From positions 32,001 to 96,000 of the forward strand of contig CALKCF010000004.1 of NCBI GenBank assembly GCA_938083505.1: 64,000 nt of DNA, given 5' to 3'. This document shows positions 6,585 to 63,962 of this stretch, piece by piece; positions within the stretch are counted from its first letter, which is position 1; each line of letters starts with the position of its first letter. This DNA comes from an uncultured archaeon (GTDB lineage: Archaea; Thermoproteota; Nitrososphaeria_A; Caldarchaeales; Wolframiiraptoraceae). The notes below the pieces were generated by a model. It saw only the letters and a program-made list of their open reading frames with translations, did no database searches and was not told where the DNA came from. Both the position numbers and the translations under genes were made by a program.

Positions 6585-6677
6585 TGCGGCGGCCGGGATT
6601 CGAACCCGGGATTTCAGGCTTGGAAGGCTTTCGCCGAATGTTCGACTGCGTCCTAGTCCAGACTAGACCACCGCCGC
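6585..6677 (-). tRNA. tRNA-Gly(TCC) with a 17-nt intron at 29/30 (6629..6645)
   Basis: Acceptor stem GCGGCGG/CCGCCGC-A and T arm CCGGG-TTCGAAT-CCCGG. The anticodon stem CAGGC/GCCTG forms only after removing TCGAACATTCGGCGAAA. Confidence 0.92.
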
Positions 6678-6818
6678 AGACGACATAAGACCTGCTATTA
6701 TTTATCATTAATAAGAATTAAAGATAATAAAAACTTGATGCCGAACCAACTAGAAGACAAAATACTTAAATAACAACAGGCACTTTATTACGAGCAATAT
6801 AAGAGGTAATGAATAGCT

Positions 6819-7604
6819 TTGAAAGTTAGTTCAGCTTTTTCTAAAACTGTCTTTATTTTGATAGCAGTCGTGTTGTCGGCTGTCGTGATAGCAGGTGTAG
6901 CTTACTATGCGACTATGCCAGTTACAACACCAACAACCTCACCTACTACTACAACAACGACGCCCACGAGCCCTACTACGACTCCAACCATAACGACACA
7001 AACTACTACGACAGAGACACAAACCACGCAGACTCAGACCGAGACGACAACAGTTACTACGACGGGTATCAGCCCTATAGTTAACTTAAGAGTTGGGTCC
7101 TATGTAAAGTACCTTCAGAGGGCCTATATGGATGAGGACATTTTTGAGTCGTACATAACGTTCCATGTTAAGGGTGAGGAGAGATACAATAACGTGAATT
7201 GTTTGCTTTTATCAATGGTTATGGAGGCTCAGCGGAATGGTGTTAGAATGAAGGAAGTTATCACATGGTGGTTATCTAAAATGGAACTAAAGATGATGCA
7301 CGCAAAGATACAGTTCTACCATAACGACGAGCTGATTTATGAGAGTGAGCCCTCACCTTACGAGGTGAGAGAGGAAGAGAGTCCTCCAGAACCTATAGAT
7401 GTGAACTACTTTGTAGGTTATGAGAGTGTAACGGTTCCAGCAGGTACATTTATAAACTGCATTAAGGTTGAGGTCTCCGAAAAAGAATCCCTTATGAAAA
7501 CATGGGCACATCCGAACGTTCCTATATACGGTTTAGTAAAATTTGAGCTATATAAAGCAGGGAGTTTGAAGTCGGTCATGGAGCTAATATCCTACGGCGG
7601 TTAA
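6819..7604 (+). CDS. Membrane-anchored cell-surface protein with a Thr/Pro-rich linker and a beta-rich C-terminal domain
   Basis: N-terminal hydrophobic helix, about 50 aa of T/P/S/Q linker, and an ESVTVPAGTF motif. Confidence 0.75.
   Translation: MKVSSAFSKTVFILIAVVLSAVVIAGVAYYATMPVTTPTTSPTTTTTTPTSPTTTPTITTQTTTTETQTTQTQTETTTVTTTGISPIVNLRVGSYVKYLQRAYMDEDIFESYITFHVKGEERYNNVNCLLLSMVMEAQRNGVRMKEVITWWLSKMELKMMHAKIQFYHNDELIYESEPSPYEVREEESPPEPIDVNYFVGYESVTVPAGTFINCIKVEVSEKESLMKTWAHPNVPIYGLVKFELYKAGSLKSVMELISYGG
6921..7063 (+). repeat. Low-complexity ACN-codon (Thr-rich) tract
   Basis: Encodes VTTPTTSPTTTTTTPTSPTTTPTITTQTTTTETQTTQTQTETTTVTTT. Confidence 0.8.
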
Positions 7605-7701
7605 ACCCTTGGATAATTAATCAAATACACTTAAAAAAATAAACCAAACTTAAAATTCTACCATTTTTTAAACATGAGGATGAGTTAGAGGGGACCACAT
7701 C

Positions 7702-8808
7702 TTGTTGTCGCAACAAAAACTTTACTTTGCTCTAGATGCTGAAGCGTTTGGTAATTTTATTGACGTCTTGAAAGATCTCGGTTACACGGTTTATGGGCCT
7801 GCGGAAAAAGATGGTGCGATTGTCTTCGAAATCCTTGACTCCATTAAGCAGATGCCAAGAGGTTTGTACGACGAGCAATCTCCTGGAAGATATAGGCTTA
7901 CCAAGAAAGATAATCAAAGATACTTCGGTTATGTTGTCGGCCCACAATCCCCGAAATACGTGCTGTACTCGCCCCAGCACTTGCTATTTAAGGTAAGGAA
8001 GGATGGGAGGACATTCATTCCGCAACCAGACGGTAAAAAGATAGCGATCATCGGACTCAGACCGTGCGATTTGAAGGCAATCGAGATACTCGATAACGTC
8101 CTACTTAAGGGACCGTATAAGAGCAATGCATACGAAGCCATCAGAAAAGATGCGCTGTTTATAGCGGTCAACTGCGTTGAGCCTGGTAATAACTGCTTCT
8201 GTACATCCATGAACACTGGTCCGTTTGCGCAATCCGGTTACGATATCTCCATCACCGAGCTTTTAATGAACGGAAGCCACGTCTTTATCCTAGAGACTAT
8301 GACAAACAAGGGCACAGAGATCGTAAGTAGACTTAAATGCAGAAATGCGACAGAGGAGGAGTTAAACGTTGTATCAAAATTGATGGAAGATGCAAAGAAC
8401 AAAATAAGGAAGAAGTTGGACGTCGAGAATCTAAAAGATGACCTTTACAGAAACATCGAACATCCGAATTGGAACGAAATCAATAATAAGTGCTTGGCGT
8501 GCGGGAACTGTACGCTTGTCTGTCCAACGTGCTTCTGCTCTTCCGTGTTTGACAGCTCATCACTCTCGATGGATGTGGCTGAGAGATGGAGGGTATGGGA
8601 TTCCTGCTTCAGCATAGATTACTCATACATTCATGGCGGATCGATAAGACAGTCAATCATGAGTCGATATAGACATTGGTTGATGCATAAGCTTGCTACA
8701 TGGGTCGATCAATTTGGAACGTTTGGCTGCGTAGGTTGCGGAAGGTGCATAACTTGGTGCCCCGTAGGAATAGATATTGTGGAAGAGGCTAGCAAGGTAA
8801 GGGATTGA
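7702..8808 (+). CDS. hydB: Group 3b NiFe (sulf)hydrogenase beta subunit, 2x[4Fe-4S]
   Basis: CLACGNCTLVCPTCFC, CVGCGRCITWCP and RPCD. Confidence 0.9.
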   Translation: MLSQQKLYFALDAEAFGNFIDVLKDLGYTVYGPAEKDGAIVFEILDSIKQMPRGLYDEQSPGRYRLTKKDNQRYFGYVVGPQSPKYVLYSPQHLLFKVRKDGRTFIPQPDGKKIAIIGLRPCDLKAIEILDNVLLKGPYKSNAYEAIRKDALFIAVNCVEPGNNCFCTSMNTGPFAQSGYDISITELLMNGSHVFILETMTNKGTEIVSRLKCRNATEEELNVVSKLMEDAKNKIRKKLDVENLKDDLYRNIEHPNWNEINNKCLACGNCTLVCPTCFCSSVFDSSSLSMDVAERWRVWDSCFSIDYSYIHGGSIRQSIMSRYRHWLMHKLATWVDQFGTFGCVGCGRCITWCPVGIDIVEEASKVRD

Positions 8809-8812
8809 GTTT

Positions 8813-9670
8813 ATGAAGGAAAAGTCCACGTTAGAGACCGCTCAAGAAGTAGAAGTCGAGGTAATGAGGAAGTTTTCAGTCGAAGAAGTCTTCAAGGAGA
8901 CGCCTGATACTTACACGCTATTACTAAAGCCGTTAGATAAGAAAGATTATAGCTTTGTTCCAGGCCAGTTTAACATGCTGTACGCGTTCGGCGTAGGAGA
9001 GGTGCCGATCTCTTTAAGCGGCGATCCAGACGAGAAGTATCTGATCGCCCACACGATTAGGGTCGTTGGTGCCGTGACAAATGCCTTGGTGAATGCAAGG
9101 AAGCCAAAATTCATTGGCCTTAGGGGTCCATTCGGGAATGGATGGCCTTTGGAGAAGACAAAAGGAAAGGACGTGATAATCGTGGCCGGAGGCATAGGTC
9201 TAGCGCCGCTCAGACCAGCAATATATTACATCTTAAAACACAGGAAGGAATATGGTAGGTTCTTCTTCCTTTACGGTGCTAGGACACCTAATGATTTATT
9301 ATACAAGAAGGAATTAAAGGAGTGGAAGAGTAGGTTCGATATGGATGCCTTCATAACTGTGGATGCTGGTGATGAAAAGTGGACAGGAAATATCGGTGTC
9401 GTAACAACTCTTTTCAAACATATAAAGCTCGACCCGAATAACACGTATGCCTTTGTCTGTGGACCAGAGATAATGATGAAGTTTACTGTACTCGAGCTCA
9501 GGAATCAAGGCTTAACTGATGATAAAATATACATCTCGATGGAAAGGAATATGAAGTGCGGCATGGGGCTTTGTGGACGCTGTCAGTTCGGGCCTTACTT
9601 TGTATGCAAGAACGGCCCGATATTTTCGATGGATCAGATAAATAGGTTCTTTGGGAGGCGTGAGGTCTGA
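8813..9670 (+). CDS. hydG: Group 3b hydrogenase gamma subunit (FAD/NAD(P), [2Fe-2S])
   Basis: [31 protein letters not shown] and CGMGLCGRC. Confidence 0.9.
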
Positions 9671-10446
9671 TGGTAGGGAAAATACCTAAGATAGCGGTAT
9701 ACAAGTTCGCATCATGTGATGGTTGTCAGCTAAGCATAGTAGACCTTGAGGATGAGCTTTTGGAGATAAACCAGAAGTTCGAGATAGCTTACTTCATGGA
9801 GGTAACTAGGGCGGCGAAAAGGGGTCCTTACGACGTCGGTTTAGTCGAAGGAAGTATATCCACGCCGCACGCTATCGAACTGATAAAGTCGATAAGGAAG
9901 GACTGCAAGACGCTCGTGGCGATAGGCGCATGCGCGACTGCAGGTGGAATCCAAGCTCTCAGGAACTGGGCGAACGTCGAAGAATTCTCAAAGTACGTCT
10001 ACGCTAAGCCTGAATACATACAGACGCTTGAGAAATCCTCTCCGATCTCAGAGTATGTCCAAGTTGACTTTGAGCTCAGGGGATGTCCTGTGAACAAGTA
10101 CCAGCTCCTTGAGGTTTTGTCCGCATTTCTTGCTGGAAGGAAGCCTAACATACCAACGTACAGCTTGTGCATAGAGTGTAAGAGAAAGGGAAACGTTTGC
10201 GTAACGGTTGCTAAGAGTGTGCCGTGCCTCGGGCCAGTCGTACAAGCAGGTTGTGGTGCACTATGCCCAGCATACTCGAGGGGTTGCTACGGGTGCTTCG
10301 GTCCGATGGAGAGCCCGAACGTGAAGAGCTTAGCAAGCAAATTCATCGAACTTGGAATGGATAAGAAAGATGTGATCCTTAATTTTAGAGGGTTTACAGG
10401 TTGGTCAAAGGAGTTTAGGGAGGTGGATGTGTTAATTGAAGGGTAA
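9670..10446 (+). CDS. hydD: Group 3b hydrogenase delta (small) subunit
   Basis: SCDGCQ, GACA, GCP, CIEC, CLGP, CGALCP and CYGCFGP. Confidence 0.9.
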
Positions 10447-11731
10447 GGCGAAGACGGTAAAGGTAGATTACCTCGCAAGGGTCGAAGGTGAGGGAGCCCT
10501 TTACATAAAGGTAAAGGGCACGGAGGTCCTAGATGTGAAGTTCAAGATATTTGAGGCGCCAAGATTTTTCGAGAGTTTCCTTAGAGGAAGGAAGTACCAC
10601 GAAGTCCCGGACATAACCGCAAGGATATGCGGTATATGCCCAATAGCATACCAGATGAGCTCCGTTCATGCATTAGAGGATGCGTTTGGGGTGAAAGTGG
10701 ACGGCCCTCTAAGAGAGCTCAGGAGGTTCATCTACTGTGGAGAATGGATAGAGAGTCATGCACTCCATGCATTCCTCCTACATGCACCCGACTTCCTTGG
10801 TTATGATGATGCAATGAGGATGGCGAAGGCCCATCCAGACATTGTCAAGAAGGCATTGATGGTGAAGAAGATAGGCAACGAGATCATGGCGAAGCTTGGT
10901 GGAAGGGAGATACATCCAGTATCTGTCTGCGTCGGAGGGTTTTATAAGGTACCGACGAAGAGGCAGATGGAGGCGATGAGAGAGGACCTGAAGAAGGGCA
11001 TGGACCTCAGCGTCGAACTACTCAGATGGGTTGCGGACCTCAAGTTCCCCGACTTCGAGCAGGACTATGAGTTTGTGTCGCTTAGACATCCAGATGAATA
11101 CCCATTAAACGAGGGAAGGATAGTGTCCAATAAGGGCTTGGATATATCGATAAGCGAGTACGAGAACAATTTCGTGGAAGAACATGTACCATACACAAAC
11201 GCCCTTCAATCATACATAAAGGGCAGGGGCTCTTACATGGTAGGGCCTCTTGCAAGGATAAACCTGAATTACGACAAGCTATGGGACCTAACGAAGGACA
11301 TGCTGAAGTCCATAGGCTTCAAGATTCCATGCAGGAACCCATTCAAGAGCATAATAGCGAGGTGTGCTGAGGTGTTGTACTCCTTCGAGGAGGCGCTCAG
11401 GATAATTAATGAGTATAAAGAACCTAACGAGTCAAAGGTTGATTACAAAGTAAAGGCAGGAAGGGGTTATGGTTGCACTGAGGCACCAAGAGGCTCATTA
11501 TACCATAGGTATGATGTAGCCGCCGATGGTACCATAGTTTCGGCAAAAATAGTACCTCCGACTGCGCAGAACCAAAAGCGGATGGAGGATGACCTGAGGG
11601 CGATGGCACCATCTGTCATGAAACTCCCTTATGAGAAGGCTGTCTGGAGGTTCGAGCAGGCCTTAAGGAACTACGATCCGTGCATATCTTGCGCCACACA
11701 CTTCCTGAGGCTAGAGGTAGAGCGCTCCTAG
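10436..11731 (+). CDS. hydA: Group 3b NiFe hydrogenase alpha (large) subunit
   Basis: RVEGEG, L1 motif RICGIC, L2 motif DPCISCATH, then a 9-aa C-terminal extension. Confidence 0.93.
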
Positions 11732-11822
11732 TTGCTGTTTAGCAATACGTGACCTGCAGGGCTTAGAAGGTCGCGAAATACTGTTAAAATTTTTATTTAG
11801 AAGCCAAAATAAGTAAAGCTGG

Positions 11823-11897
11823 GCGGCCGTGGTCTAGCCTGGATAAGACACCAGCCTGCCACGCTGGGGTTCCCGGGTTCAAATCCCGGCGGCCGCA
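11823..11897 (+). tRNA. tRNA-Gly(GCC), no intron
   Basis: GCGGCCG/CGGCCGC-A acceptor, CCAGC-CTGCCAC-GCTGG anticodon arm, TTCAAAT T loop. Confidence 0.96.
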
Positions 11898-11925
11898 TAT
11901 CCTTCAATAACCAAATAGAGCCAAC

Positions 11926-13059
11926 ATGCCCGCGTTCTTTGCAACAATAGTTACAGGGCTAGAAGATGTTGGGGCAAAAGAGGTCGAGTCTATAGTAGGC
12001 TGTAAAGCAAGGCCGGATGCCGGTAAGGTGTTCTTCGAATGCGACATTTATGGTGCTGTATTGCTGAACTTTACCTCTCGTTGTTTACATAAGATTTTCC
12101 TATTACTTGGACACGATACCGTTTCCTCGCTGGAAGATGTTGCACGCCTTGCACGTAGTATAGATTATGCTGAGCTGATCCTACCGTCGCAGTCGTTCGC
12201 CGTTAGGGTCGAGAAACATGGTGAGCATGAGCTTAGAAGCCTCGATATTGCCTCAACTGTAGGCAAGAGTGTCGTAGAGTCTTACCTTGCATCCAAAAAC
12301 GTCAGGCTTGTTGTCAATTTAGACAACCCAGATGTCGAGCTGTATGCTTTGCTGAGGAACAATGAGTTGCTGATTGGCTTGAACATGACTGGGCAATCGC
12401 TTCATAGAAGGTTTTACAAAACATTCTATCATAGAGCGTCGCTCATGCCGACGATAGCTTGCTCCATGATATTGCTGAGCGGTTGGAAACCGGGAGAGAG
12501 TTTGTTAGATCCGATGTGTGGAGGCGGAACGATACCGATAGAGGCGGCACTGATGGCAAGACGCATAGCGCCAGGCTTGAGAAAGGGTAATCTGGCCTTA
12601 GAGAGGCTATTCTTCATCGAAAAAGAGCTTATTGGAGAGATTCGCGACAAGCTTCTCTCAAACGAGACGAATGTTATGGTGGAAATCTACGGCATAGATG
12701 TCTCGCCAAAGAGTGTTGAAGGTGCACTTGTTAACGCAGCCAAGGCGAACGTATTGGATACTGTGTCAATAAAGGTTGGCGACGCATTAAATTTAGTTAA
12801 TTACATAAGCGAGCCGCCCGATCACATCATAACGAATCCGCCCTACGGTATAAGGATGGGTATCAGGAACATAGAAAAGTTCTATGAGAGAATCTTAACG
12901 TCGATTAGACAGGCGGCTCCGCATGCAACTATAACGATAATAACGAGTAAGTCGAACCTTCTCAGAAGGATTGCGGAAGCGCTCAGAATGCAAGTGGTCG
13001 AGGCTAGACAGTTGTTCTACGGAAGGATTCAAGCGAACATAATTAAGCTGTTGCAATAA
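11926..13059 (+). CDS. trm14: THUMP-domain tRNA m2G6 methyltransferase (Trm14-like)
   Basis: THUMP domain, SLHRR, LDPMCGGGTIPIEAA and TNPPYG. Confidence 0.8.
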   Translation: MPAFFATIVTGLEDVGAKEVESIVGCKARPDAGKVFFECDIYGAVLLNFTSRCLHKIFLLLGHDTVSSLEDVARLARSIDYAELILPSQSFAVRVEKHGEHELRSLDIASTVGKSVVESYLASKNVRLVVNLDNPDVELYALLRNNELLIGLNMTGQSLHRRFYKTFYHRASLMPTIACSMILLSGWKPGESLLDPMCGGGTIPIEAALMARRIAPGLRKGNLALERLFFIEKELIGEIRDKLLSNETNVMVEIYGIDVSPKSVEGALVNAAKANVLDTVSIKVGDALNLVNYISEPPDHIITNPPYGIRMGIRNIEKFYERILTSIRQAAPHATITIITSKSNLLRRIAEALRMQVVEARQLFYGRIQANIIKLLQ

Positions 13060-13070
13060 AAATTAACTCT

Positions 13071-14354
13071 TTACTTGCAAAAATTCATCCAGCCTTCCAT
13101 CTTCTCCCATGACCAGCTGTAGCTTGCCGGCACAGCATACCCATAGACTATGCAACCACGCCAAACCGAGTACTGCGGCTCCGATGCCATAGTAACCTCT
13201 ATGTTCTCTATGCCCTTCTCCGCCATCATACGTTTAATCTTCGTAGCAGAATCCACGCAGACGTTCTTCAACTTCTCTGGAACCCTCCAAGAGAAGTTCC
13301 CACCGGATAAGAGTATCTGGCTGTAGAGCAGTGGCTGGAGCTCAACAGGACACTTCTCTACAGCACTTATTATCGCTTCAGCCATGTTAAGCATTCCATA
13401 AAAGACAACATCACCGACCTTTGTGTCCCTTGGTCTCGGCATCCCTCTCTTAAAATAACTCTGAAATATTTCGTGGTTTGGGTTAAAGACGTACTCGCCG
13501 ACTAAAAATCTTGTCCAAGAGTTCTCGGCAAGGTCTATCTTGAGTCTAGTTCCAGGAACCGAATAGACCGTCCTAACAGCATCTGGGTTATTTTTAGCGA
13601 ATGAAATGGCAGAGTTTAAATCAGCAGGCAATAGACCCAGGTTTTCCTTAACCTTTCTCACCAGAGTCTCCTCAGCAGCCAAATCACCATAACCAGCATC
13701 TTTGAGGATTTCTGTCATGATAGCGTTGGCATCGCTCCCTCCCCTATTCAAAGCTATGACAGCACCTCTTATGGGTGCTCTAGAGATTGGTGCGAACTGT
13801 GTATTTCCATGCCCGCTCTCCACCACGACGCAAGATGTCTTCTTGTGAGCTATGGCGACAGCAAGAGGTTGCGAAATTATTGTTGCCGAATGTACGAGGC
13901 CCGCCTCTTTGGCCATGCTCTCAAGCATTTCAAAGAACTTCTCGTACATGTACCTCGGCGCGACGGCTGAGAGTGCGGCCACGACATAAAAACCATTGAA
14001 GCCCCAACCCTTTGGCTTGAACTCCTCTAACGCATGGCGCATCAGCTCCCTCACCACTTTCCATGCTTTTACATCGTCCTTCATGATGATGCCTTCTCTC
14101 ATCGGGTAGATGAGTCGTGTGGCGAGCTCTGCACCGCTCTCCAAGAATAGCGTTATATCCTTTCCGACGATCACTTCACGGTCAACACCCATTATCTGGG
14201 AGAGAATTGTTTTCTCAGGGAAGTAACCCCTGTTTTCTACGACAAGAGGTCTCTCGCCTTGGGTTATTGGCCCGTACTTAAACTCGCTTGTACCGTAATC
14301 CGTTCCGAACACGTAACGCTTTTTGTAATCTTCGTCATGCATCTCCATCAACAA
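13071..14354 (-). CDS. Crenactin (archaeal actin homolog)
   Basis: Phosphate-1 motif FGTDYGTSEFKYGPIT, QPLAVAIA, phosphate-2 motif VESGHGNTQ, ALNRGG, adenosine motif ILLSGGNFSW, and EPQYSVWRG. These align with Pyrobaculum crenactin as I recall it. Confidence 0.93.
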   Translation of the reverse strand: MLMEMHDEDYKKRYVFGTDYGTSEFKYGPITQGERPLVVENRGYFPEKTILSQIMGVDREVIVGKDITLFLESGAELATRLIYPMREGIIMKDDVKAWKVVRELMRHALEEFKPKGWGFNGFYVVAALSAVAPRYMYEKFFEMLESMAKEAGLVHSATIISQPLAVAIAHKKTSCVVVESGHGNTQFAPISRAPIRGAVIALNRGGSDANAIMTEILKDAGYGDLAAEETLVRKVKENLGLLPADLNSAISFAKNNPDAVRTVYSVPGTRLKIDLAENSWTRFLVGEYVFNPNHEIFQSYFKRGMPRPRDTKVGDVVFYGMLNMAEAIISAVEKCPVELQPLLYSQILLSGGNFSWRVPEKLKNVCVDSATKIKRMMAEKGIENIEVTMASEPQYSVWRGCIVYGYAVPASYSWSWEKMEGWMNFCK

Positions 14355-14386
14355 TATCTATAATGCTTATGAATTTAAGCGTTAAA

Positions 14387-15052
14387 CTAACCTTTGCCCG
14401 CTAATATATCGAGCCATGGATTGTCTTTTACGAATGACGGTAACTCAATTTCGGAGTTAAGGTTAGCTATCTTGTCAGGCACATACTGTACTGTAGGTTT
14501 GACGTGCAATGGGCGCATACCCTCAAAACTCAGTAACTTGTTAGAGAGTTCGTTGTATGCTACCTCGAGCCTCTCCAACCTTGCCACCAACGCGTCTATT
14601 TCATTTACCTTATAGACAACCCTCTCCAGCCTCTCTATCCTTTCAAGCACTTGCAAAACTTCCTCGTATTTTATAGGCACGCTACCTTCATTCCCCATCT
14701 CGTCGTGCTTTATGTTCTTTACAATGGGTGGCAACTCCTCTATACCATGCGGTCCATACAACAGAAGACCTATGCCGTGCAACCTGATAACCATGAACTC
14801 ATCCATAGAGCTCATGTTCTTCGGAACCAAGATGTATGGTTTCTCACCTTTGGCCGCCCAGAAAGCAGACTGCAGAGCGGCGGAGATTAACTCCAGCCTA
14901 CCATCGGTATCATCAAGTATCTTGACGACATAAGTAGAACTGTTCCCAACGAACCTCAGCGTATCTTCTTCCACACTACCGCTATCGAACCTCAGGCCCT
15001 GCCTTGACATGTAGCTGATGACATTCCTTTCAAGAATGGTCCGCGGTACCAA
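14387..15052 (-). CDS. Arcadin-2-like crenactin-binding protein
   Basis: Directly upstream of crenactin on the same strand. Globular N-domain, coiled coil, and C-terminal DNPWLDILAGKG, which resembles the arcadin-2 tail helix. Confidence 0.72.
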   Translation of the reverse strand: MVPRTILERNVISYMSRQGLRFDSGSVEEDTLRFVGNSSTYVVKILDDTDGRLELISAALQSAFWAAKGEKPYILVPKNMSSMDEFMVIRLHGIGLLLYGPHGIEELPPIVKNIKHDEMGNEGSVPIKYEEVLQVLERIERLERVVYKVNEIDALVARLERLEVAYNELSNKLLSFEGMRPLHVKPTVQYVPDKIANLNSEIELPSFVKDNPWLDILAGKG

Positions 15053-15140
15053 AATCTGTCAAATTACATAACAAGGCTTTTTCGTTAAAAGGTTATTTGA
15101 GTAAGGTATGGGGAGAGTTTACCGAAAGTGAAGATGAGCT

Positions 15141-19021: not shown

Positions 19022-19080
19022 GGCGATGATGAAAGAACGTCGCGACTTACAGAATGCTTATGAGGAGCGGGGTCTGAGCC
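19022..19080 (+). ncRNA. Box C/D methylation-guide sRNA (#2)
   Basis: C ATGATGA 19026-32 and D CTGA 19074-77 with a GGC/GCC terminal stem. Internal boxes are degenerate (CTTA, ATGCTTA). Confidence 0.7.
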
Positions 19081-45447: not shown

Positions 45448-45471
45448 ATATAGCAAAGCCAAATCTTACGA

Positions 45472-45527
45472 GCGATGATGATGTTGAGGTACGCTGAATG
45501 TATGATGAGGGTTGCAGTAGCTGAATA
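45472..45527 (+). ncRNA. Box C/D methylation-guide sRNA (#4), all four boxes perfect
   Basis: C ATGATGA 45475-81, 12-nt guide, D' CTGA 45494-97, C' ATGATGA 45502-08, 12-nt guide, D CTGA 45521-24. Confidence 0.92.
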
Positions 45528-54904: not shown

Positions 54905-55414
54905 ATGTGTAATGAAGCAAAGAGGTTAGTGGACAGGGCAGCAAAACTTACCAAAATGTTTGGTGAAGAGTTTAGCGGATGTTCGCAGATGACCTTGAAG
55001 GCCCTTCAAGAAACTTTTGGTGTAGTGGACTAGAGCGTTTTCATGGCAGCAACGCCGCTTGCTGGTGGTGTGGCGAGGGGCGGAGAGGTATGCGGTGCAT
55101 TGCTCAGAGCCATGATGTTCGTCGGCATGCTTTATGGCAGGAGAAAGTTAGAAAAGACGAGCGAATCAGAAGACTACTCGAAGTGCATGGACTTGGCGAT
55201 CATGATATACGATGAGTTTAATAAGACTTATGGAAGCGTTAGATGCAAAGATATACATCCGAGACTTTTTCGGTAGAATTTATGATTTAAGAAACCCTGC
55301 GGATTTGAAGTTTTTGCTGAATCCGAAGCAATGAACAAGTGCGCCGATGTGATGGCAAAGGTTGCCGAGATAACCACGAAGCACATCTTACGTACAGAAC
55401 GACCGGGCAGTTAA
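54905..55414 (+). pseudogene. C-GCAxxG-C-C family redox protein, disrupted
   Basis: GCSQ, in-frame TAG at 55031-33, LAGG...CGALL and GSVRCKDI; frameshifts near 55270 and 55310, then NKCADV. Confidence 0.78.
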
Positions 55415-55543
55415 ATTTCTAAAGAGCTCATAAAGATTCAGGAGAAGCAATACCGCCTGCTATACGAGTTTTCGTAAAATTCATGAAGCAAGCAGTTTAT
55501 AAAGTAGCACGAATAGACTGACAAACAAGGTAAGCGTGCCTTA

Positions 55544-55636
55544 GCCGGGGTGCCCTAGCCCGGTAGGTCTGCCGAAGGGGCCGGTCTGCTAAACCGGTGG
55601 CCTATGGCCGCGCGGGTTCAAATCCCGCCCCCGGCG
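55544..55636 (+). tRNA. tRNA-Ser(GCT) with a 10-nt D-arm insertion/intron (best fit 22/23, 55567..55576)
   Basis: GCCGGGG/CCCCGGC-G acceptor, CCGGT-CTGCTAA-ACCGG anticodon arm, variable arm TGGCC-TAT-GGCCG. The D arm is 10 nt too long. Confidence 0.88.
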
Positions 55637-55665
55637 CCTCGGTAAGTCTCAAAAAGTTACCTGCG

Positions 55666-57039
55666 TTAAGACCGCAGCTTACCTCTCGCTAAAGACGCGA
55701 AGATTCCTGCAAAGCAGAGTACTGAAAAAACTATGAACGCCAGATTAGCGCTTTTTAGGAAAATCGGATAGGATTCTGGAGTTATTTGAATCCTGCCCAT
55801 GTATACGGCGAATATCGTCGTTACTATGCCCATGCTCAACATCTGTCCAACAGAGCGCATGGTTGCAAGTGTCGCTGACGCAATTCCGTAAAACCTCTTC
55901 TTGACGGAGCTCATGACGGCATTCGTATTAGGAGATGAAAAGAGTCCAAACCCGAGCCCTATCAAGAGCAAGTTAGCTGTTATGAAGCTCATGGGCGTTT
56001 TATCGCCTAGGGAGGTGAATAGGAAGAGCGATACAGTGGTTAGTGCCATGCCGGCTGATGCGAGAACCCTCGGCTCAATCTTATCAGAAAGCCTGCCCGC
56101 GATCGGTGAGAAGATGGACATCACGGCGGGTTGGATGAGCAAAACCATACCAGCATCCTGGGGACTAAGTCCTTTCACGTTCTGTAAGTAAAGGCTAAGT
56201 AGGTAACCTACGGCAAACGTTGCGCTGTAGTTTATCAGTGCTGCCAAATTGGAGAACGCAAATGTAACGTTTTTTCTGAACAAGCTAATGTCGAGCACAG
56301 GACTTTTTATCCTAGATTCCCAAACGATGAACGCTACGAGACCTAAAGCGCCTAAGGTTGTTAAAAGCAACCCCAAATCATGTGGAAACAAAGAGATACC
56401 GTACATCAGGATAACGAGTGCTAACCCGTAAGTTACGGAGCCGATCAGGTCGAATTTTTCACCCTTAGCCTCAGCCCACTCACCATTTAACTTCCAAAAA
56501 ACAATGAGAATGGCTACTAGGCCGATAAGTGCATTAAAGATGAAAAGACTCCTCCAACTGAGGTTTTGGGTCATTAAGCCACCCAATGACGGGCCCAACG
56601 AAAGCCCCAGGTAGATTGAAGCCGCGTTTATACCGAGAACCTTTCCTCTCTCAACAAGAGGAAATACCGATGTCAGTATGGCTGCGGCAGTAGCAAATAT
56701 CATCGCGCTCCCAATACCCTGGAACGCCCGATAGAGGATTATCAGAATAGGAGAAGCGGACGTGGCCGAGAGCAGCGAAGAAACAACGTAAACTATTAAG
56801 CCATATACGAAGACCCTCTTTCTTCCGTAAAGGTCCGCGACTCTTCCAAACGGTACAAGGGAAGCCGCGGCCGTTAGAAGAAACGACATGGCGACCCAGT
56901 TCATGAGAATAACGTCCATCGCGAATTCTTTTGCTATGGATGGTAAGGCAACGTTTATCGAGGAGCCCATGAATGGTGTGAGAAAAGACCCGAGCGTAGT
57001 TACGAGCAATGCACCCCTCTTCTTAGAGTAGTTATTCAT
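55666..57039 (-). CDS. MFS transporter, DHA2 (EmrB/QacA-like, 14 TM)
   Basis: INVALPSI, FGRVADLYGRKR, GPSLGG, WRSLF and SSPNTNAVMS. Start moved to ATG 57039. Confidence 0.9.
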   Translation of the reverse strand: MNNYSKKRGALLVTTLGSFLTPFMGSSINVALPSIAKEFAMDVILMNWVAMSFLLTAAASLVPFGRVADLYGRKRVFVYGLIVYVVSSLLSATSASPILIILYRAFQGIGSAMIFATAAAILTSVFPLVERGKVLGINAASIYLGLSLGPSLGGLMTQNLSWRSLFIFNALIGLVAILIVFWKLNGEWAEAKGEKFDLIGSVTYGLALVILMYGISLFPHDLGLLLTTLGALGLVAFIVWESRIKSPVLDISLFRKNVTFAFSNLAALINYSATFAVGYLLSLYLQNVKGLSPQDAGMVLLIQPAVMSIFSPIAGRLSDKIEPRVLASAGMALTTVSLFLFTSLGDKTPMSFITANLLLIGLGFGLFSSPNTNAVMSSVKKRFYGIASATLATMRSVGQMLSMGIVTTIFAVYMGRIQITPESYPIFLKSANLAFIVFSVLCFAGIFASLARGKLRS

Positions 57040-57184
57040 TTCAAGCCGAAAGAATGTTTCTGTAACTATGTAAATATTTATTGTTCGAAATATGGGAAAA
57101 CTTTTTACAAATAGAGGAAGAATGAGTGCACAAAATAATCCTAAAGTTAGAGCGTTGTGCAGGAGTATGGTATGGTGAGCGAGG

Positions 57185-57649
57185 GTGCTGGTGGGCATAG
57201 TGTCTGATACCCACGACAATCTGGATAGGATAAGAAGGTCGGTTCAGGTCTTTAAGGAGCGAAAAGTCGAGATTGTTATACACTGCGGAGACTGGGTAGC
57301 GCCGTTCTCAGTTAAGGAGTTTAAGGAGTTAAGGGTAATGTCCGTGCTCGGTAACAACGACGGAGACCTACTCTTACTGGAGAAAACTTTAAGAGAGATG
57401 GGCTCAAGCTTAGAGGGCAGGTTTGCCTCGCTTAGCTTAAACGGTAAGAGGGTAGCCGTAATTCACGGCGAATATCCCGAGCTTGTAGAAGCACTCGTGA
57501 AGAGCGGTATGTACGACGTCGTAATCCACGGGCACACGCATAAGCGTAGATGCGAAAGGCTCAGTGGTACTTTGATACTCAACCCGGGATGGGATTCCGT
57601 TATAATCTACGATGAATCAACGGACACGGCAGATTTTGTCGAAACGTAA
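57185..57649 (+). CDS. YfcE/MJ0936-type metallophosphoesterase
   Basis: SDTHDN, HCGD, GNND, IHG, GHTH and NPG. Confidence 0.92.
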   Translation: MLVGIVSDTHDNLDRIRRSVQVFKERKVEIVIHCGDWVAPFSVKEFKELRVMSVLGNNDGDLLLLEKTLREMGSSLEGRFASLSLNGKRVAVIHGEYPELVEALVKSGMYDVVIHGHTHKRRCERLSGTLILNPGWDSVIIYDESTDTADFVET

Positions 57650-57663
57650 GTCGAAAGACTTAA

Positions 57664-58098
57664 ATGCTATTAAAGTTACAAAAATTTATGCAAAGAGAAA
57701 GGCCTTTTGGTGTAACGGTTATAGCGATACTTGAAATTATAGGTGGTTTAGTCCTCATCGGCCTGGGAGCATTTTTTGCTGCGGTTGGGATGGCGGCGGG
57801 TGTGATTCCTTTCTTTGGTTTGCCTATCAGTATAGTATATATCGGCTTAGCCATCATACTCATAATCCTAGGTTTGATCGCCTTCGCGATAGCCTACGGT
57901 TTATGGACTGGTAAGGGATGGGCTTGGACCGTTGCATTAGTTTTTTCAATAATCGGTATAATAATCGGCCTCTTAAACCTTCCTGGGGGTATAATAAACA
58001 TAATCATCAATGCCATCATAATCTACTACTTAACGCGTCCACATGTCAAAGAGTTCTTCGGGAAAGCACCACCTATGCCTCCACCGCCGCCACCTTAG
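57664..58098 (+). CDS. Small 4-TM membrane protein with a poly-Pro tail
   Basis: RPFGVTVIAIL, YGLWTGKGWAW, YYLTRPHVKEFFG and PPMPPPPPP. Likely start is 57688. Confidence 0.78.
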   Translation: MLLKLQKFMQRERPFGVTVIAILEIIGGLVLIGLGAFFAAVGMAAGVIPFFGLPISIVYIGLAIILIILGLIAFAIAYGLWTGKGWAWTVALVFSIIGIIIGLLNLPGGIINIIINAIIIYYLTRPHVKEFFGKAPPMPPPPPP

Positions 58099-58247
58099 AT
58101 AAGCGGCCTGCCGAGTTTCTGAATGTACTGATAAAGCTCCTTAGCGTAGTTAGACAGAGCGTCAACCTTTTTCGATAATTCCTCTATCTTGGCCTCCAAC
58201 TTTGCGACCTTTTCCCTTAGCTCTACAAGCTCCTTATCTATACTCAT
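58095..58247 (-). CDS. 50-aa coiled-coil protein (absent from the ORF track)
   Basis: MSIDKELVELREKVAKLEAKIEELSKKVDALSNYAKELYQYIQKLGRPLI; heptad pattern and purine-rich coding style. Confidence 0.75.
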   Translation of the reverse strand: MSIDKELVELREKVAKLEAKIEELSKKVDALSNYAKELYQYIQKLGRPLI

Positions 58248-58346
58248 GGATATTCAAAAGAAGGTTAAACGATAATCTTTTACTTAAACTTTTTTTAACC
58301 AAATGCGTATTCCATCGCGGGTTGCTGTATCTCGTTGCTTTTGCAA

Positions 58347-59810
58347 CTAAATGCCTATCTGACCACTCACAGCCCTTCCTATTATGCTGAGTATCGGAGC
58401 ATTAATGAATCCTAAAGTTATGACTAACAGTAGTAGGATACTCATGGAGAACAACATACTAATCGGTACCTCCTTTACCTCTTTATACTTCAATTCCAAG
58501 AAGAAGATGGCTCTGATCATTCTAAGGTAGTATGCTGCCGTGATAGCGGTCACAAAGATCGCGATAGCTGTCAAAAGCGTCGCGCCAGATGCGAAAGCCC
58601 CGGAGAATACCATCCATTCGCTTGCGAAGCCTCCAAGCGGCGGCGTCCCGGCTATCGATAGCCCAGCTACAAGCATCGTTATGGCCGTTACGGGCATCTT
58701 GGATGCTAAGCCGCCAAGCTTCGTCAAGTCCCTTTCCTTGACCTCATGTATTAAGGCTCCGGCACACATGAAGAGTAGCCCTTTAGCAAAGCCGTGATTC
58801 AGGACATGAAATAAGCCACCAGAGGCGCCTATTGGTATAAGCGACGAGAGGCCGAAGAGTATGTAGCCCATCTGACTGATGCTGCTGTAAGCCAAAAGCC
58901 TCTTAACGTCGTTCTGAACCAGGGCCATGAGACCTCCCCAGAGCATGGTTACGACCGCGAGGGGCATAAGCCATGCCGACATCTCGGAGACCGCTGCTGG
59001 CATGAGATCAAGTATCAGCCTTGAAAAGGCATAAGCACCCGTCTTTATCATAACACCGCTCAGGAGGACACTTATAGGCGTTGGCGCCTCAGCATGAGCA
59101 TCTGGAAGCCATGTATGGAACGGAAACACTGCCATCTTAACGGCTGCTCCTATGAATATCAATGTCGCTACACCTAGCAATGACATTCTGTGGATTTCAT
59201 AACTACGAGGAACGTTTTCTAAGAGTAGCGACATGTCCATGCTACCGAACATGGAGTTCAACCAAGCTATGCCAAGGAGCATGCAAAGGGCGCCAGCATG
59301 AGTGAAGATGAAGTACTTAAAGCCTATGAGTCTCGGGTTTCCAGTTCCCCAGTACGCTATGAGGAAGTAAGATGGAATGAGCATGATTTCCCAGAATATA
59401 TAGAGCATAAATAGGTTCCAAGAAAGGACGACGCCCATCATGCCCGTTTGGAATATTTGCAACAAAGGATAGTAGACTTCCAACTTGTTTTCGTGCTCCA
59501 TGTACCTGTGCGAGTAAACGCTAGCCAAGAAACCCATTAGGGATATGAGCAGGGCGAACGGATAGCTTAGGCTGTCCAACATGAAGTTTAGGTTGAGGCC
59601 GAATGCCGGTATCCAACTGTACGTCTCGTACAGCTGCTTGCCAGCCATTATTATTGGTGCATGGTATAAGATTATCAGGAACGGTATAAGACATGAGATG
59701 TGACATAGTATGGCTCCGTATGTCCACGAATGTCTTCCCAATAAGTAGGTGAAGGGTGAAGCAAGTAGGGGCAGCAACACACTGATGAAAAGCAAGTAAT
59801 TCATCATCAT
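58347..59810 (-). CDS. nuoM: Complex I antiporter-like subunit NuoM
   Basis: YIFWEIMLIPSY, KMAVFPFHTWLPDAHAEAPTPISVLLSGVMIK and LAYSSISQMG. Confidence 0.85.
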   Translation of the reverse strand: MMMNYLLFISVLLPLLASPFTYLLGRHSWTYGAILCHISCLIPFLIILYHAPIIMAGKQLYETYSWIPAFGLNLNFMLDSLSYPFALLISLMGFLASVYSHRYMEHENKLEVYYPLLQIFQTGMMGVVLSWNLFMLYIFWEIMLIPSYFLIAYWGTGNPRLIGFKYFIFTHAGALCMLLGIAWLNSMFGSMDMSLLLENVPRSYEIHRMSLLGVATLIFIGAAVKMAVFPFHTWLPDAHAEAPTPISVLLSGVMIKTGAYAFSRLILDLMPAAVSEMSAWLMPLAVVTMLWGGLMALVQNDVKRLLAYSSISQMGYILFGLSSLIPIGASGGLFHVLNHGFAKGLLFMCAGALIHEVKERDLTKLGGLASKMPVTAITMLVAGLSIAGTPPLGGFASEWMVFSGAFASGATLLTAIAIFVTAITAAYYLRMIRAIFFLELKYKEVKEVPISMLFSMSILLLLVITLGFINAPILSIIGRAVSGQIGI

Positions 59811-61747
59811 ATACGAAGACCTCCGAAAAGCAATATTAAGAATATAACCAAGAGTATCGCGATTCCTAAAGCATACGCGCTTATATTGATGTTGCTGCTG
59901 CCGGTCTGTAAGTACCTGAAAGCCTGAATGAATGATTGTGTCACCCTAGCCAGCGCGTAGTTGAAACCATCTATGACCTTCTCCTCTATATACCTCCTGA
60001 CTTTTGATGAGAACCATAGCGTTCCATCTACGAAAACCTTGTAGTATACGTGGTCGACGTAGTATCTGTTAACCAGAAGTTTGTGGAGCGCCGAACCCAG
60101 CCCACTCGTCCTAATACTAACAGGGTTTATGAGCGGTGCGCCTCTTAACGTTGCGGATAAGTAAAAAGCATAGGCAAGCAGTAGGCCGAATATGAGTATA
60201 GCCGCTGACGTTGCGTATGTTAGCAAGCTGGGCTTAAAATGGTGATGTAGACCGAAGTAGCTCGTGAAAGGTTCTTCGAAGAAGCCGACTAGCAAGCTTA
60301 GTGCGGCGAGTATGAGTAGCGGTATTGTCATGACCTTCGGAGCCTCATGCGCATGGGACGATTCTGGGTTTGAGGAAGCCAAGAATATCTTATAAATCCA
60401 CCTCATGATGTACGTAACTGTTAAGATCGATGTGAGGACGATGAGTAGGTAAATTACAGCGTTGCTAATCTCGAGCGCCGCCTCTATTATCAGGTCTTTG
60501 CTGAAGAAACCACTGAATGGAGGTATACCGGAGAGCGCAAGCGCGCCAAAGAGTGATGCGATGAAAGTGAGCGGCATCTTTCTTGCCAGCCCACCCATCC
60601 TATCGATGTCGTTCGTATGAACAACATGTATCACCGCTCCGGCCGAAAGGAATAGTAAGGCTTTGAATATACTGTGGCTGAGAACGTGGAATTGGCTGGA
60701 GAACCATCCAAGCTCAGAGGCTAAGCCGAGGGCGGCAAACATCAGCCCAAGTTGACTTATCGTGGAGTACGCCACGACCCTCTTTATATCGTTCATCACC
60801 AAGCCCATCGTGGCAGCCAAGAAAGCCGTTACCGCCCCTATTATTGCTATGGTTTCGTACCAAGGGGTCAGAATTTTCCCAAAGGATTCCAGCGGAACAA
60901 TTGTGAATGCTGTCCTAGCAACAAGATAAACACCTGCCTTTACCATGGTTGCCGCGTGGATGAGAGCGCTGACTGGTGTTGGGCCTTCCATGGCGTCAGG
61001 CAGCCATACATGTAAGGGAAATTGAGCCGACTTCCCCATCGCGCCACCAAATATTAACAGCATACATGTGATAACGAAGCCCTGAGCACCCGGGTCTTTT
61101 GAAAGCAACTCTTCCAGACCTATTGATACTTCGCGCATACTAAATGTGCCAAGAGAGATGTAAAGCAAGAGTATGCCGATTAAGAATACTACGTCGCCCA
61201 CTCTTGTAGTGACGAACGCTTTTATTCCTGCATGCGCCGCGGACGGTCTCCTGTACCAAAAGCCGATTAGCGCGTAAGAACACAACCCGACTATTTCCCA
61301 GAATATGTATGTTTGTAAGAGGTTGTTGGAAAGCACGAGACCTACCATCGCACCAACGAAGAAGAGCATGAAGAAATAGTATCTCGGGAGCCCCTCTTCA
61401 TGTTCCATGTAACCTATAGAGTAAAGGATTATGAGTGTACCAAGAAACGATGCGATGGATGCAAACAGCACCGATAACGGGTCTGCCAGGACGCCTGCTT
61501 CGATCCAGCTACCGTCTGGCAGGGGTATCCACTTTATCTTTTCTTCTATAACCTTACCTCCCCATACACTAGGCACCATGGAGAGTGAGAAAATAGCGGA
61601 AATCGATGTAATAATGACCGGGTACGTTTCGCCTGCCTTCTTACCTAGCCTGAAGATAGCAGGAGCGAACACGGAGCCAACAATAGGTATCAACCACGAA
61701 AGCCATGCTGCGAACGGCAACATGTTAAAAATAGAACTTTTTGGCAA
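59807..61747 (-). CDS. nuoL: Complex I antiporter-like subunit NuoL
   Basis: FWEIVGLCSYALIGFW, KSAQFPLHVWLPDAMEGPTPVSALIHAATMV, and the transverse helix plus final TM (YYVD..Y, IDG, QTG). Likely start is 61723. Confidence 0.9.
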   Translation of the reverse strand: MPKSSIFNMLPFAAWLSWLIPIVGSVFAPAIFRLGKKAGETYPVIITSISAIFSLSMVPSVWGGKVIEEKIKWIPLPDGSWIEAGVLADPLSVLFASIASFLGTLIILYSIGYMEHEEGLPRYYFFMLFFVGAMVGLVLSNNLLQTYIFWEIVGLCSYALIGFWYRRPSAAHAGIKAFVTTRVGDVVFLIGILLLYISLGTFSMREVSIGLEELLSKDPGAQGFVITCMLLIFGGAMGKSAQFPLHVWLPDAMEGPTPVSALIHAATMVKAGVYLVARTAFTIVPLESFGKILTPWYETIAIIGAVTAFLAATMGLVMNDIKRVVAYSTISQLGLMFAALGLASELGWFSSQFHVLSHSIFKALLFLSAGAVIHVVHTNDIDRMGGLARKMPLTFIASLFGALALSGIPPFSGFFSKDLIIEAALEISNAVIYLLIVLTSILTVTYIMRWIYKIFLASSNPESSHAHEAPKVMTIPLLILAALSLLVGFFEEPFTSYFGLHHHFKPSLLTYATSAAILIFGLLLAYAFYLSATLRGAPLINPVSIRTSGLGSALHKLLVNRYYVDHVYYKVFVDGTLWFSSKVRRYIEEKVIDGFNYALARVTQSFIQAFRYLQTGSSNINISAYALGIAILLVIFLILLFGGLRI

Positions 61748-61834
61748 TCATTTAAACGTTGAGCTAAATATGGATTCCTCGCACTAATTGTCGTTAATAG
61801 ATATGGATTTATAGGGTTATTTACATCATAATGG

Positions 61835-62137
61835 TTGGTGGTTAAGCTGGAGCTCGTGTTAAAAGTAAGCTCAGAAAATGTCGATAAAGCAAGAAACGTC
61901 TTGTTAAGCGACGAGATCGTGTCGAGGGCCAATGTTCTGTTTAGAGATGCAAAGATAATAGGAGAAGAAGGCTACTACGTTCGAATAATAGGAACTGACG
62001 AACAGTGTTATAGGGCTTTGGAGCTAGCTAGAGATTTTGCGAAAGAGGTTAAAAGTGAAGAGAGGGAGAGGGTGCTTTCGAAGTTCGAGGAAGAAGGCGA
62101 AGCTGCACTTGAAGGATTTGGAAGAATTTTTAGATAA
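61835..62137 (+). CDS. Hypothetical small alpha/beta protein
   Basis: Clean 100-aa ORF with coding-like composition; C-terminal ALEGFGRIF. Confidence 0.65.
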   Translation: MVVKLELVLKVSSENVDKARNVLLSDEIVSRANVLFRDAKIIGEEGYYVRIIGTDEQCYRALELARDFAKEVKSEERERVLSKFEEEGEAALEGFGRIFR

Positions 62138-62227
62138 TTAACCCAACTTTATCGGAAACGTTGGGTGATGTTTAAATATTTTTTAAATTTACTACATAAT
62201 AACTAAGACGTATTTAACGGTGGTCGC

Positions 62228-63817
62228 ATGGGTAGGCGGATAGTTCTAACTTGTGATAGAACATTGACAAGTGAGTATAGGCATGTACCGCTTTTGGATT
62301 TCCTCCCATGCGCGCCCTCAGAAAAAGTTCCTGAGTTTCTCTTCAAATTTTTAGCACCCCAAATACCGGCTGTGGATGGTGTGCTGCCCTATGCACCTTA
62401 TGGTCTTAGGAAGATTGAAGCATCTTTGCGTAGGGATTATAGCGAGAAGGACGTAGTAGTTGCACACCCAGATTACGTTGAAAATTTCATCGGTGAGGAA
62501 ACGAAGGTTGTTGGAATATACGAGATGGACCCACTCGGCTTAGGTCCTTTAAGCCTCGCATTTACGACTGGAAAATTTACGTCGTTCTCAAAGAAATACT
62601 TTGTAGAACTTATTAACAAACTTAACACAATTAGGAAGTCTTATGGCTTTAAGTTCAAAATTGTCGTGGGAGGTCCTGGCGCGTGGTATCTTGATGTAAG
62701 ACCTCAGATAAGGAAGGAGCTGAACATAGACCACATAGTGATAGGTGAGGCTGACCACGTTGCGCCGATTTTATTCCACGAGTTTGAGGAGGGCGATCCG
62801 CCGGAGACCATAAAGATTACGAATCCGCCAAGGTTGGAAGACATACCATTGATAGTTAATCCGAGCATACATGGCCTCGTGGAGGTCATGAGGGGTTGCG
62901 GTAGAAATTGCCAGTTCTGCGACCCGACGCTGAGGGTTGCGAGGTATGTACCGGTAGAGAACGTACTAGAAGAGATCAAAGTTAACACGAAGCACGAAAT
63001 CCATAATGCATGGACTCATAGTGAAGACATCTTCCTGTATAAGGTTGAAGATAAGAAGAATTTCTATCCAAATAGGGACGCACTCATCGAACTCTTCTCA
63101 GCGGTGATGTCAACCCCAGGTATAAGGCACAGCAACCCGACACACGGGACCGTAGCGCCTGCGGCCGCCGACCCGTTACTCATACATCAGCTCTCTAAGA
63201 TATTGAGAAGTTCACCAGAACATTGGATAGGCATACAGTGCGGAATGGAGACAGGCTCCGGAACTCTGCTTGCTAGGTACATGCCGTTGAAGGCTAAGCC
63301 CTTTAACCCTGAAGAATGGCCAGAAGTTGTGATAAATGGAACGGCGGTCTTCAACATGAATTATTGGTTTCCGGGCTACACGTTGCTGATAGGGCTTCCG
63401 ACAGAGACCGACGACGATTTATGGGACACCGTAAGGTTGCTGGATGCAATGGAAATTATTCTGCCCGAGAAGATAGGCGAGAAGGCTCATTTCACAGCTA
63501 CACCGCTCTTCTTCGTACCTATGGGTGTATTGAGCGGTGAGGAGTTCTTCGACGCGAGTAAGCTGACAGAGGCGCAGATGTGTGTTATATACAGAGCATG
63601 GAGACACATACTCATAGAGCTGAATAGACTCCCGACTCGGATGATAAGGCTGAACCCGTTACTGAAGCTAGCGTTCAATATAATAGCGCACTTCGGTGCC
63701 AACTTAGTAGTAAAGGTCATAGAGAAGTCTGCGAAGTCTATGGGTTATGACGTCTCGAAGGCTCTGAGAGTCAGCCCGATAGAGGTAAAGATCAGCCTGC
63801 CCCAGACCCCAGCTTAG
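62228..63817 (+). CDS. Radical SAM protein with an N-terminal B12-binding-like domain
   Basis: APYGLRKIEA, MDPLGLGP, VGGPGAW, GEAD, EVMRGCGRNCQFC (CX3CX2C) and GMETGS. Confidence 0.88.
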   Translation: MGRRIVLTCDRTLTSEYRHVPLLDFLPCAPSEKVPEFLFKFLAPQIPAVDGVLPYAPYGLRKIEASLRRDYSEKDVVVAHPDYVENFIGEETKVVGIYEMDPLGLGPLSLAFTTGKFTSFSKKYFVELINKLNTIRKSYGFKFKIVVGGPGAWYLDVRPQIRKELNIDHIVIGEADHVAPILFHEFEEGDPPETIKITNPPRLEDIPLIVNPSIHGLVEVMRGCGRNCQFCDPTLRVARYVPVENVLEEIKVNTKHEIHNAWTHSEDIFLYKVEDKKNFYPNRDALIELFSAVMSTPGIRHSNPTHGTVAPAAADPLLIHQLSKILRSSPEHWIGIQCGMETGSGTLLARYMPLKAKPFNPEEWPEVVINGTAVFNMNYWFPGYTLLIGLPTETDDDLWDTVRLLDAMEIILPEKIGEKAHFTATPLFFVPMGVLSGEEFFDASKLTEAQMCVIYRAWRHILIELNRLPTRMIRLNPLLKLAFNIIAHFGANLVVKVIEKSAKSMGYDVSKALRVSPIEVKISLPQTPA

Positions 63818-63872
63818 ATGCAAAAAATTCAATAAGCCCTATGTTGTATAAATATACTGGCCGGGGTAAAAG

Positions 63873-63962
63873 GCCGGGGTTGGCGAAAAGCCACCGAAGG
63901 CCGAGCAGCTAGGCGGCGGCCTGCAGAGCCGCTCCACTCGGGTGCAAATCCCGACCCCGGCT
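63873..63962 (+). tRNA. tRNA-Cys(GCA) with an 18-nt intron at 8/9 (63881..63898)
   Basis: GCCGGGG/CCCCGGC-T acceptor and GCGGC-CTGCAGA-GCCGC anticodon arm. Removing TGGCGAAAAGCCACCGAA gives GCCGGGGTGGCCGAGCAGCTAGGC. TATA-like TATAAATA at 63847-54. Confidence 0.88.

Follow-up and report, generated by a model that had tools for sequence, protein, structure and literature searches.

tRNA genes and introns in the window

The stretch of DNA analysed here, referred to as the window, spans 64,000 nucleotides (nt) of contig CALKCF010000004.1 (positions 32,001 to 96,000 of the forward strand) in the genome of an uncultured hot-spring archaeon of Candidatus Terraquivivens, a member of the Caldarchaeales, formerly Aigarchaeota (PMC9246946). 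The window has four tRNA genes, of which tRNA-Gly(UCC), tRNA-Ser(GCU) and tRNA-Cys(GCA) are interrupted by short introns and tRNA-Gly(GCC) is not. They were identified by a scan of our own, in which all position pairs able to form a helix-bulge splice motif, that is, candidate bulge-helix-bulge (BHB) introns, were listed, each candidate was removed and the product was scored with ARAGORN. The features are as follows, a bar marking the cut in each intron ending:

6677..6585, minus strand: tRNA-Gly(UCC) gene, with the 5' exon at 6677..6646 and the 3' exon at 6628..6585
6645..6629, minus strand: Gly(UCC) intron, 17 nt at position 29/30, ending GGCGAAA|G
11823-11897, plus strand: tRNA-Gly(GCC), intron-less, 64.5 bits in Rfam over the full model and 124.1 in ARAGORN
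55544-55636, plus strand: tRNA-Ser(GCU) gene, the sole gene found for the AGY codons
55567-55576, plus strand: Ser(GCU) intron, 10 nt at position 22/23, ending GCCGAA|G
63873-63962, plus strand: tRNA-Cys(GCA) gene, with U73 and the unusual bases A18 and G55
63881-63898, plus strand: Cys(GCA) intron, 18 nt at position 8/9, ending ACCGAA|G

Unaided, ARAGORN reports three tRNA genes in the window and Rfam two above threshold, to which a permissive Rfam search adds a weak match to the Ser gene. The unspliced Gly(UCC) gene matches the Rfam tRNA model with 44 bits and a 28-nt insert, and splicing raises its ARAGORN score from 107 to 124.6; the Ser gene rises from 102 to 122.4. The Cys gene is missed by Rfam and by ARAGORN without splicing, and its spliced form scores 114.2. 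Each of the three is the single gene for its anticodon in the genome, according to the genome tRNA scan.

The Gly(UCC) intron has a 4-bp central helix ACGC/GCGA with three of four pairs and an A.A mismatch, bulges AG|U (5') and AA|G (3'), and an inner hairpin CGA-ACAU-UCG. The Cys intron is built in the same manner, with a helix CGGG/ACCG (three of four pairs, a G.A mismatch), bulges GU|U and AA|G, and an inner hairpin GGC-GAAAA-GCC. The Ser intron is of the bulge-helix-loop (BHL) form: its helix CGGU/GCCG has four of four pairs and no inner helix beside it, the 5' cut lies within a 6-nt loop, the 3' bulge is again AA|G, and the outer helix has only 2 bp. All three fail the strict hBHBh' motif with both flanking helices and are therefore relaxed. 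This re-derivation confirmed the lengths, positions, endings and imperfect motifs that an earlier note had read from the DNA. The introns are very probably ordinary archaeal protein-spliced tRNA introns of the relaxed BHB and BHL kind, served by a known type of enzyme.

Conservation in related genomes

Each of the three genes was searched for in 60 related genomes and the recovered loci were analysed, with the tRNA-Cys orthologues of the order aligned over the 3' exon. At each of the three splice junctions, orthologues in related genera that lack the intron are colinear with the spliced gene, and the splice points are thus independently fixed. The Ser intron occurs at the same site in 7/7 Terraquivivens genomes. 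In one species it carries three substitutions, one of which (G to A) replaces a U.G of the helix by U-A, and another converts the AA of the bulge to AG. None of the 23 Ser(GCU) orthologues recovered from other genera has the intron, and all are colinear at this junction. The Gly(UCC) intron stands at 29/30 in six Terraquivivens genomes, five of which have a variable inner hairpin and a perfect GCGU strand opposite ACGC, so the A.A mismatch is private to the genome studied. Outside the genus this gene has either no intron or one at 37/38, and none at 29/30. The Cys intron is found at 8/9 in the genome studied and in four more of the genus, and is absent from one genus member. It also occurs in two genomes, both of one genus, of another family, where it has 23 nt, a longer hairpin and the ending CCCGAC|G, and it is absent from every remaining recovered orthologue of the order.

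The lineage-wide occurrence that had been proposed for the three introns therefore holds across the genus, in seven, six and five genomes for Ser, Gly and Cys, respectively. Their distribution points to recent gain in all three cases, the Ser 22/23 and Gly 29/30 introns being confined to the genus and the Cys 8/9 intron to the genus plus one genus elsewhere. On comparative grounds, conservation with helix-preserving change, single-copy status and colinearity with intron-less orthologues leave splicing as the only reasonable reading.

The tRNA intron set of the genome

In the genome 43 distinct tRNA genes were identified, of which 22 carry a total of 27 introns of 10-32 nt (median 20), or 0.63 introns per gene. 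Nineteen introns (70%) are non-canonical; of archaeal introns at large, about 70% are canonical (PMC8450103). Eight introns lie at 37/38; three each at 15/16, 29/30 and 30/31; two each at 22/23 and 36/37; and one each at 8/9, 9/10, 23/24, 25/26, 59/60 and 68/69. Positions 22/23, 29/30, 30/31 and 59/60 are among the listed non-canonical positions (PMC4090602). The enrichment anticipated in the earlier note for the rest of the tRNA set is thus present.

A single rule fits 27/27 introns. Exon bases -6 to -3 form a 4-bp helix with intron bases L-5 to L-2, with at least three pairs and a 3-nt bulge or a loop on each side, and the cuts fall after the second base of the bulge. Removal of the introns yields tRNAs scoring 114-128 in ARAGORN for the genome set, and 114-125 for the three genes of the window. 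In local minimum-energy folds the central helix appeared for only seven of the 27 introns and was absent even for some of the textbook canonical kind; being uninformative, this folding was not used. ARAGORN's own intron calls, which present Gly(UCC) as Val-AAC and Val(GAC) as Phe-GAA, were rejected: the resulting anticodon loops lack U33, or the splice points depart from the helix-bulge geometry.

Several genes of the set deserve separate mention (C with a number denotes a contig of the assembly). tRNA-Phe(GAA) (C8:4397-4491) has a 22-nt intron in the T loop, at 59/60; Rfam and ARAGORN both missed the gene, and only a scan for acceptor stems found it. tRNA-Val(GAC) and tRNA-Val(CAC) (C8:2996-3089 and C8:33370-33477) have introns at 36/37, one base before the canonical site, which are shared with a sister genus; that of Val(CAC) may also be read as 37/38 with a 4-nt bulge. 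tRNA-Gln(UUG) (C2:12346-12458), once its two introns are taken out, is left with a D loop of 7 nt, which differs from that of its paralogue Gln(CUG). Its 15/16 intron has the only GG|G 3' bulge of the genome, and its 3' cut may not be where the rule places it. An identical tRNA-Lys(UUU) gene stands at the start of contig 1 (C1:11-106) and at the end of contig 3 (C3:221444-221539), and the two contigs therefore probably abut.

Scans for T arms, acceptor stems and anticodon arms found no Tyr-GUA, Leu-GAG or third CAU tRNA in the 10-contig assembly, and a low-threshold ARAGORN run for these three returned only noise. Terraquivivens tengchongensis has all three genes. In BLAST against the assembly studied, its Tyr gene has no match, its third CAU gene matches only Ile(GAU) (77%) and its Leu(GAG) gene only Leu(UAG) (95%). 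The orthologues probably lie in assembly gaps.

Splicing enzymes

The genome has two paralogous loci for the splicing endonuclease EndA, matching PF01974 and PF02778, and only one of them has the Tyr/His/Lys triad. The alpha subunit (C3:217365-217934) matches the Aeropyrum pernix catalytic subunit 3P1Z_B with E = 2e-50, keeps the triad, and has Lys in the Crenarchaea-specific loop at the positions of both K44 and R46. K44 is the residue of the A. pernix loop shown to confer broad specificity (PMC3241643). In the beta subunit (C2:44923-45474), Phe and Ala replace the catalytic Tyr and His, as would be expected of a structural subunit. The ligase RtcB is encoded at C1:39071-40384. The alpha subunit is 85-92% identical to the catalytic endonucleases of named Candidatus Terraquivivens species.

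The likeness to the A. pernix (alpha-beta)2 enzyme (PDB 3P1Z; PMC3241643) extends to the catalytic subunit, aligned over 175 residues, with its triad, the loop lysine at K44 and the separate non-catalytic subunit. The beta subunit differs in being nearer to the EndA of Methanocaldococcus jannaschii and the fusion of Methanopyrus kandleri (5X89) than to crenarchaeal beta subunits. The (alpha-beta)2 EndA with the specific loop has been reported as a conserved feature of Thaumarchaeota, Crenarchaeota and Aigarchaeota (PMC5829648), and known enzymes of this type accept relaxed motifs (PMC3241643). Assembly of the Terraquivivens EndA as a heterotetramer and its cleavage of relaxed motifs are predicted, and the splicing system appears to be of this known permissive type. 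A permissive system had been suspected in the earlier note, and typing of EndA agrees with it: the genome does not encode a strict enzyme only, but an (alpha-beta)2 enzyme with the specific loop.

From the motifs, genes and conservation we infer the following course of cutting and joining. The four exon bases upstream of the 5' cut would pair with the four intron bases upstream of the 3' cut, and both cuts would be made after the second base of the 3-nt bulge (or in the loop) flanking this helix. The heterotetrameric (alpha-beta)2 EndA, whose catalytic subunit bears the Crenarchaea-specific loop and its lysine, would make the cuts, and RtcB would join the exons.

The shared 3' junction

The earlier note had taken the similar endings of the three introns as a shared 3' junction and inferred a family of micro-introns. 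As letters the shared junction is real, and the three window introns are three of only six in the genome that end in AA|G. It is, however, a particular form of a genome-wide consensus. In the 3' bulge, 25 of the 27 introns have A as the first base and 24 have a purine as the second (12 A and 12 G), so that the form A-R|N is found in 22. The first exon base after the 3' cut is G in 13/27, and a purine precedes the 5' cut in 23/27. The A-purine bulge is also present in all eight canonical introns. This consensus is not circular, because the scan ignored the identity of the bulge bases. Among the introns recovered from Candidatus Caldiarchaeum subterraneum, the 3' bulge has A in 9/9 and the purine in 8/9, and most introns of the sister genus are alike.

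The CG in front of the AA makes up the last two bases of the exon-paired intron strand (GCCG opposite CGGU in Ser, ACCG opposite CGGG in Cys), and it is fixed because this strand must pair with a G+C-rich tRNA exon. The common ...CG-AA|G ending would thus have two unrelated causes, an order-wide preference for A and then a purine in the 3' bulge, and the complementarity of the pre-bulge strand to a G+C-rich exon. We read the shared ending as splice-site consensus plus pairing constraint, and not as evidence of common descent.

An A-purine dinucleotide before the 3' cut might be required by the endonuclease or the ligase, in which case splicing would be partly sequence-specific rather than purely structure-specific. 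The bias of the bulge bases and of the purine before the 5' cut, together with the same preference in three other genomes of the order, favours this view, and tRNAscan-SE 2.0 needed a separate intron model, with a differing consensus, for Thaumarchaeota (PMC8450103). Exceptions do occur, however, with AU, AC, CA and GG in the genome studied and UA, UG, UU and GA in the sister genus, and the preference may instead reflect bulge stability or descent, or be general to archaea. A literature search found no structural paper reporting base-specific contacts with the bulge. We regard such a requirement as possible but rather doubtful.

Much less probable is a common origin of the three introns as copies of a single mobile micro-intron, with CGAA|G as its conserved part and CCGG-type exon sites as its targets. 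The Ser and Cys introns and the Asp intron at 68/69 do share the ending [G/A]CCGAA|G and a position three bases behind an exon CCGG, and all three window introns were recently gained. Transposition of tRNA introns is moreover an accepted proposal (Fujishima 2010, as summarised in PMC4090602), established for the Thermoproteales (PMC4090602, PMC4033280). Yet outside the bases imposed by pairing and the general A-R bulge, the window introns score only 4-7 pairwise, within the shuffle background, in which the best pair averages 8.8. In an all-against-all alignment of the 27 introns, the only similar pairs were Gln CUG/UUG and Arg GCG/UCG, which are paralogues with introns at the same site; no near-identical introns in unrelated tRNAs were found among the 27, nor any motif common to their 27 exon helix strands. 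The CG of the Gly ending is one base out of register with those of Ser and Cys. Between the genome studied and T. tengchongensis, the bulge of orthologous introns changes from AG to AA in Asn, Ile and Arg(UCG), and from AG to AU in Arg(GCG). Only 3-12 bases per intron are free of constraint, too few in introns of 10-18 nt for homology to be either demonstrated or strictly excluded. The proposed family is not upheld by the bulge consensus, the pairing, the shuffle-level similarity of the introns or the AA/AG exchanges.

Least probable of all, indeed very nearly negligible, is that the inserts are not introns, with the genes decaying into pseudogenes or the inserts being tolerated expanded loops or assembly errors: Rfam misses or under-scores all three genes and the 10-nt Ser insert sits at the edge of the D loop, but the same inserts occur at the same sites in 5-7 independently assembled genomes with changes that keep the helix, a search for further genes with these anticodons yielded none, and the exons are as conserved as in the intron-less orthologues.

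Two observations weigh against our reading of the window introns as ordinary relaxed introns with a consensus ending. The concentration in the window of three of the genome's six AA|G introns has a chance of about 0.7% under random drawing, although the test is post hoc and the choice between AA and AG is labile. The Ser motif is also minimal, with its 2-bp outer helix and no inner helix, and the unspliced RNA could formally retain a D stem.

Intron turnover within the order

The tRNA loci of T. tengchongensis, of one sister genus and of C. subterraneum were put through the identical intron procedure. The counts for these relatives are lower bounds, since the scan accommodates no more than two introns and depends on an intact acceptor stem, and a few genes were mis-solved. 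Most introns of the genome studied recur at the same site in T. tengchongensis; the His intron at 9/10 does not. In the sister genus, 20 of 27 introns (lower-bound counts) are at 37/38. Seven tRNAs, Gly(UCC), Arg(GCG), Arg(UCG), Lys(UUU), Pro(GGG), His and Phe, have a 37/38 intron there and in Terraquivivens have instead an intron at 29/30, 30/31, 23/24, 9/10 or 59/60. The only introns common to the two genera are those of Val at 36/37 and of Ser(CGA), Leu(CAG) and Gln(CUG) at 37/38. Among the C. subterraneum orthologues recovered, the same-site counterparts of Terraquivivens introns are only Ser(CGA) and Trp, at 37/38.

Intron-rich tRNA sets appear to be order-wide, and the predominance of non-canonical sites a trait of the genus. 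The window introns would be part of a rapid intron turnover in the order. More tentatively, a burst of turnover in Terraquivivens, in which 37/38 introns were replaced by introns at 29/30, 30/31, 22-24, 9/10 and 59/60, might have yielded the 10-nt Ser intron, possibly at or below the smallest recorded for archaea, with the A-purine rule at both cuts as a genuine sequence preference of the order's splicing enzymes. We consider this combination unlikely on balance; if true, it would provide a natural series for the minimal (alpha-beta)2 substrate and for the dating of intron gain.

tRNA-Cys and other noncoding RNA features

The tRNA-Cys gene repeats its 5' acceptor strand in the leader, 4 nt ahead of the true one:

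63859-63867, plus strand: leader copy GGCCGGGGU of the tRNA-Cys 5' acceptor strand

This copy is present in 7/7 intron-bearing orthologues and in 0/23 intron-less ones. The possibility that the upstream GCCGGGG copy is the true 5' exon, which would give a 31-nt intron, was set aside, as there would be no inner helix beside the 5' cut. A leader copy also accompanies tRNA-His (C2, about 162700) and persists in T. tengchongensis, where the 9/10 intron is lacking from tRNA-His; such a copy can therefore outlast or precede its intron.

The 3' exon of tRNA-Cys (63899-63962) is unusual in its tertiary contacts. In the genus and in family f4 of the order, 17 loci in all, the D loop is AGCAGCUA and the T loop UGCAAAU, giving A18 and G55. 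The remaining 13 tRNA-Cys orthologues of the order have AGCGGCUA with UUCRAAU, and thus G18 and U55. The 18-55 tertiary pair, which is nearly universal, thus covaries perfectly among these loci. With G55, pseudouridine 55 is ruled out, and the A18/G55 combination helps explain why Rfam misses the gene.

Two sub-threshold Rfam matches to archaeal C/D-box sRNA families, at 45471-45527 (28.3 bits) and 19022-19079 (23.7 bits), are possibly unannotated guide RNAs.

Comparison with known systems and significance

The introns of Crenarchaeota, and of Thermoproteales in particular, are alike in being short, protein-spliced, located at many positions, relaxed in motif and, in some genes, several to a gene (Marck and Grosjean 2003; Sugahara 2008; PMC4090602). 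The intron load is high in both groups, with 0.84 introns per gene in Thermoproteales against 0.63 in the Terraquivivens genome and 0.21 in archaea overall (PMC8450103). The Thermoproteales differ in belonging to another lineage, Terraquivivens being in the Caldarchaeales of the class Nitrososphaeria, and in having near-identical introns in unrelated tRNAs, on which the transposition model for that group rests.

The closest parallel is C. subterraneum, of the same order. For it, the first Aigarchaeota genome paper, in 2011, described a heterotetrameric endonuclease and BHB motifs, with introns placed not only at 37/38 but also in the D, V and T arms (PMC3082918), and recent intron gain has been described in a Caldiarchaeum population (PMC3293823); by our own reading of that genome, the A-R 3' bulge is shared too. 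The number of intron-bearing tRNAs differs, with 13 reported against 22 of 43 in the Terraquivivens genome. Since non-canonical BHB introns and the heterotetrameric endonuclease were already in that first genome, the suggestion of undescribed biology made in the earlier note does not stand, and the findings do not point to a new mechanism. No paper on the tRNA introns of this genus turned up in our literature search. The new points are modest: a fast, genus-specific turnover of introns and a conserved 10-nt BHL intron.

The main import of these results is for annotation. With standard tools tRNA-Cys is missed, Gly(UCC) is called Val(AAC), Val(GAC) is called Phe, and Phe, with its T-loop intron, is missed; a metagenome-assembled genome of this lineage would therefore appear to lack essential tRNAs. 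The genome also adds a second lineage, outside the Thermoproteales, with a high load of non-canonical introns, in which gain, loss and change of site are seen between sister genera and even between sister species. The conserved 10-nt BHL intron of tRNA-Ser(GCU) lends itself to testing how small an intron the endonuclease can handle.

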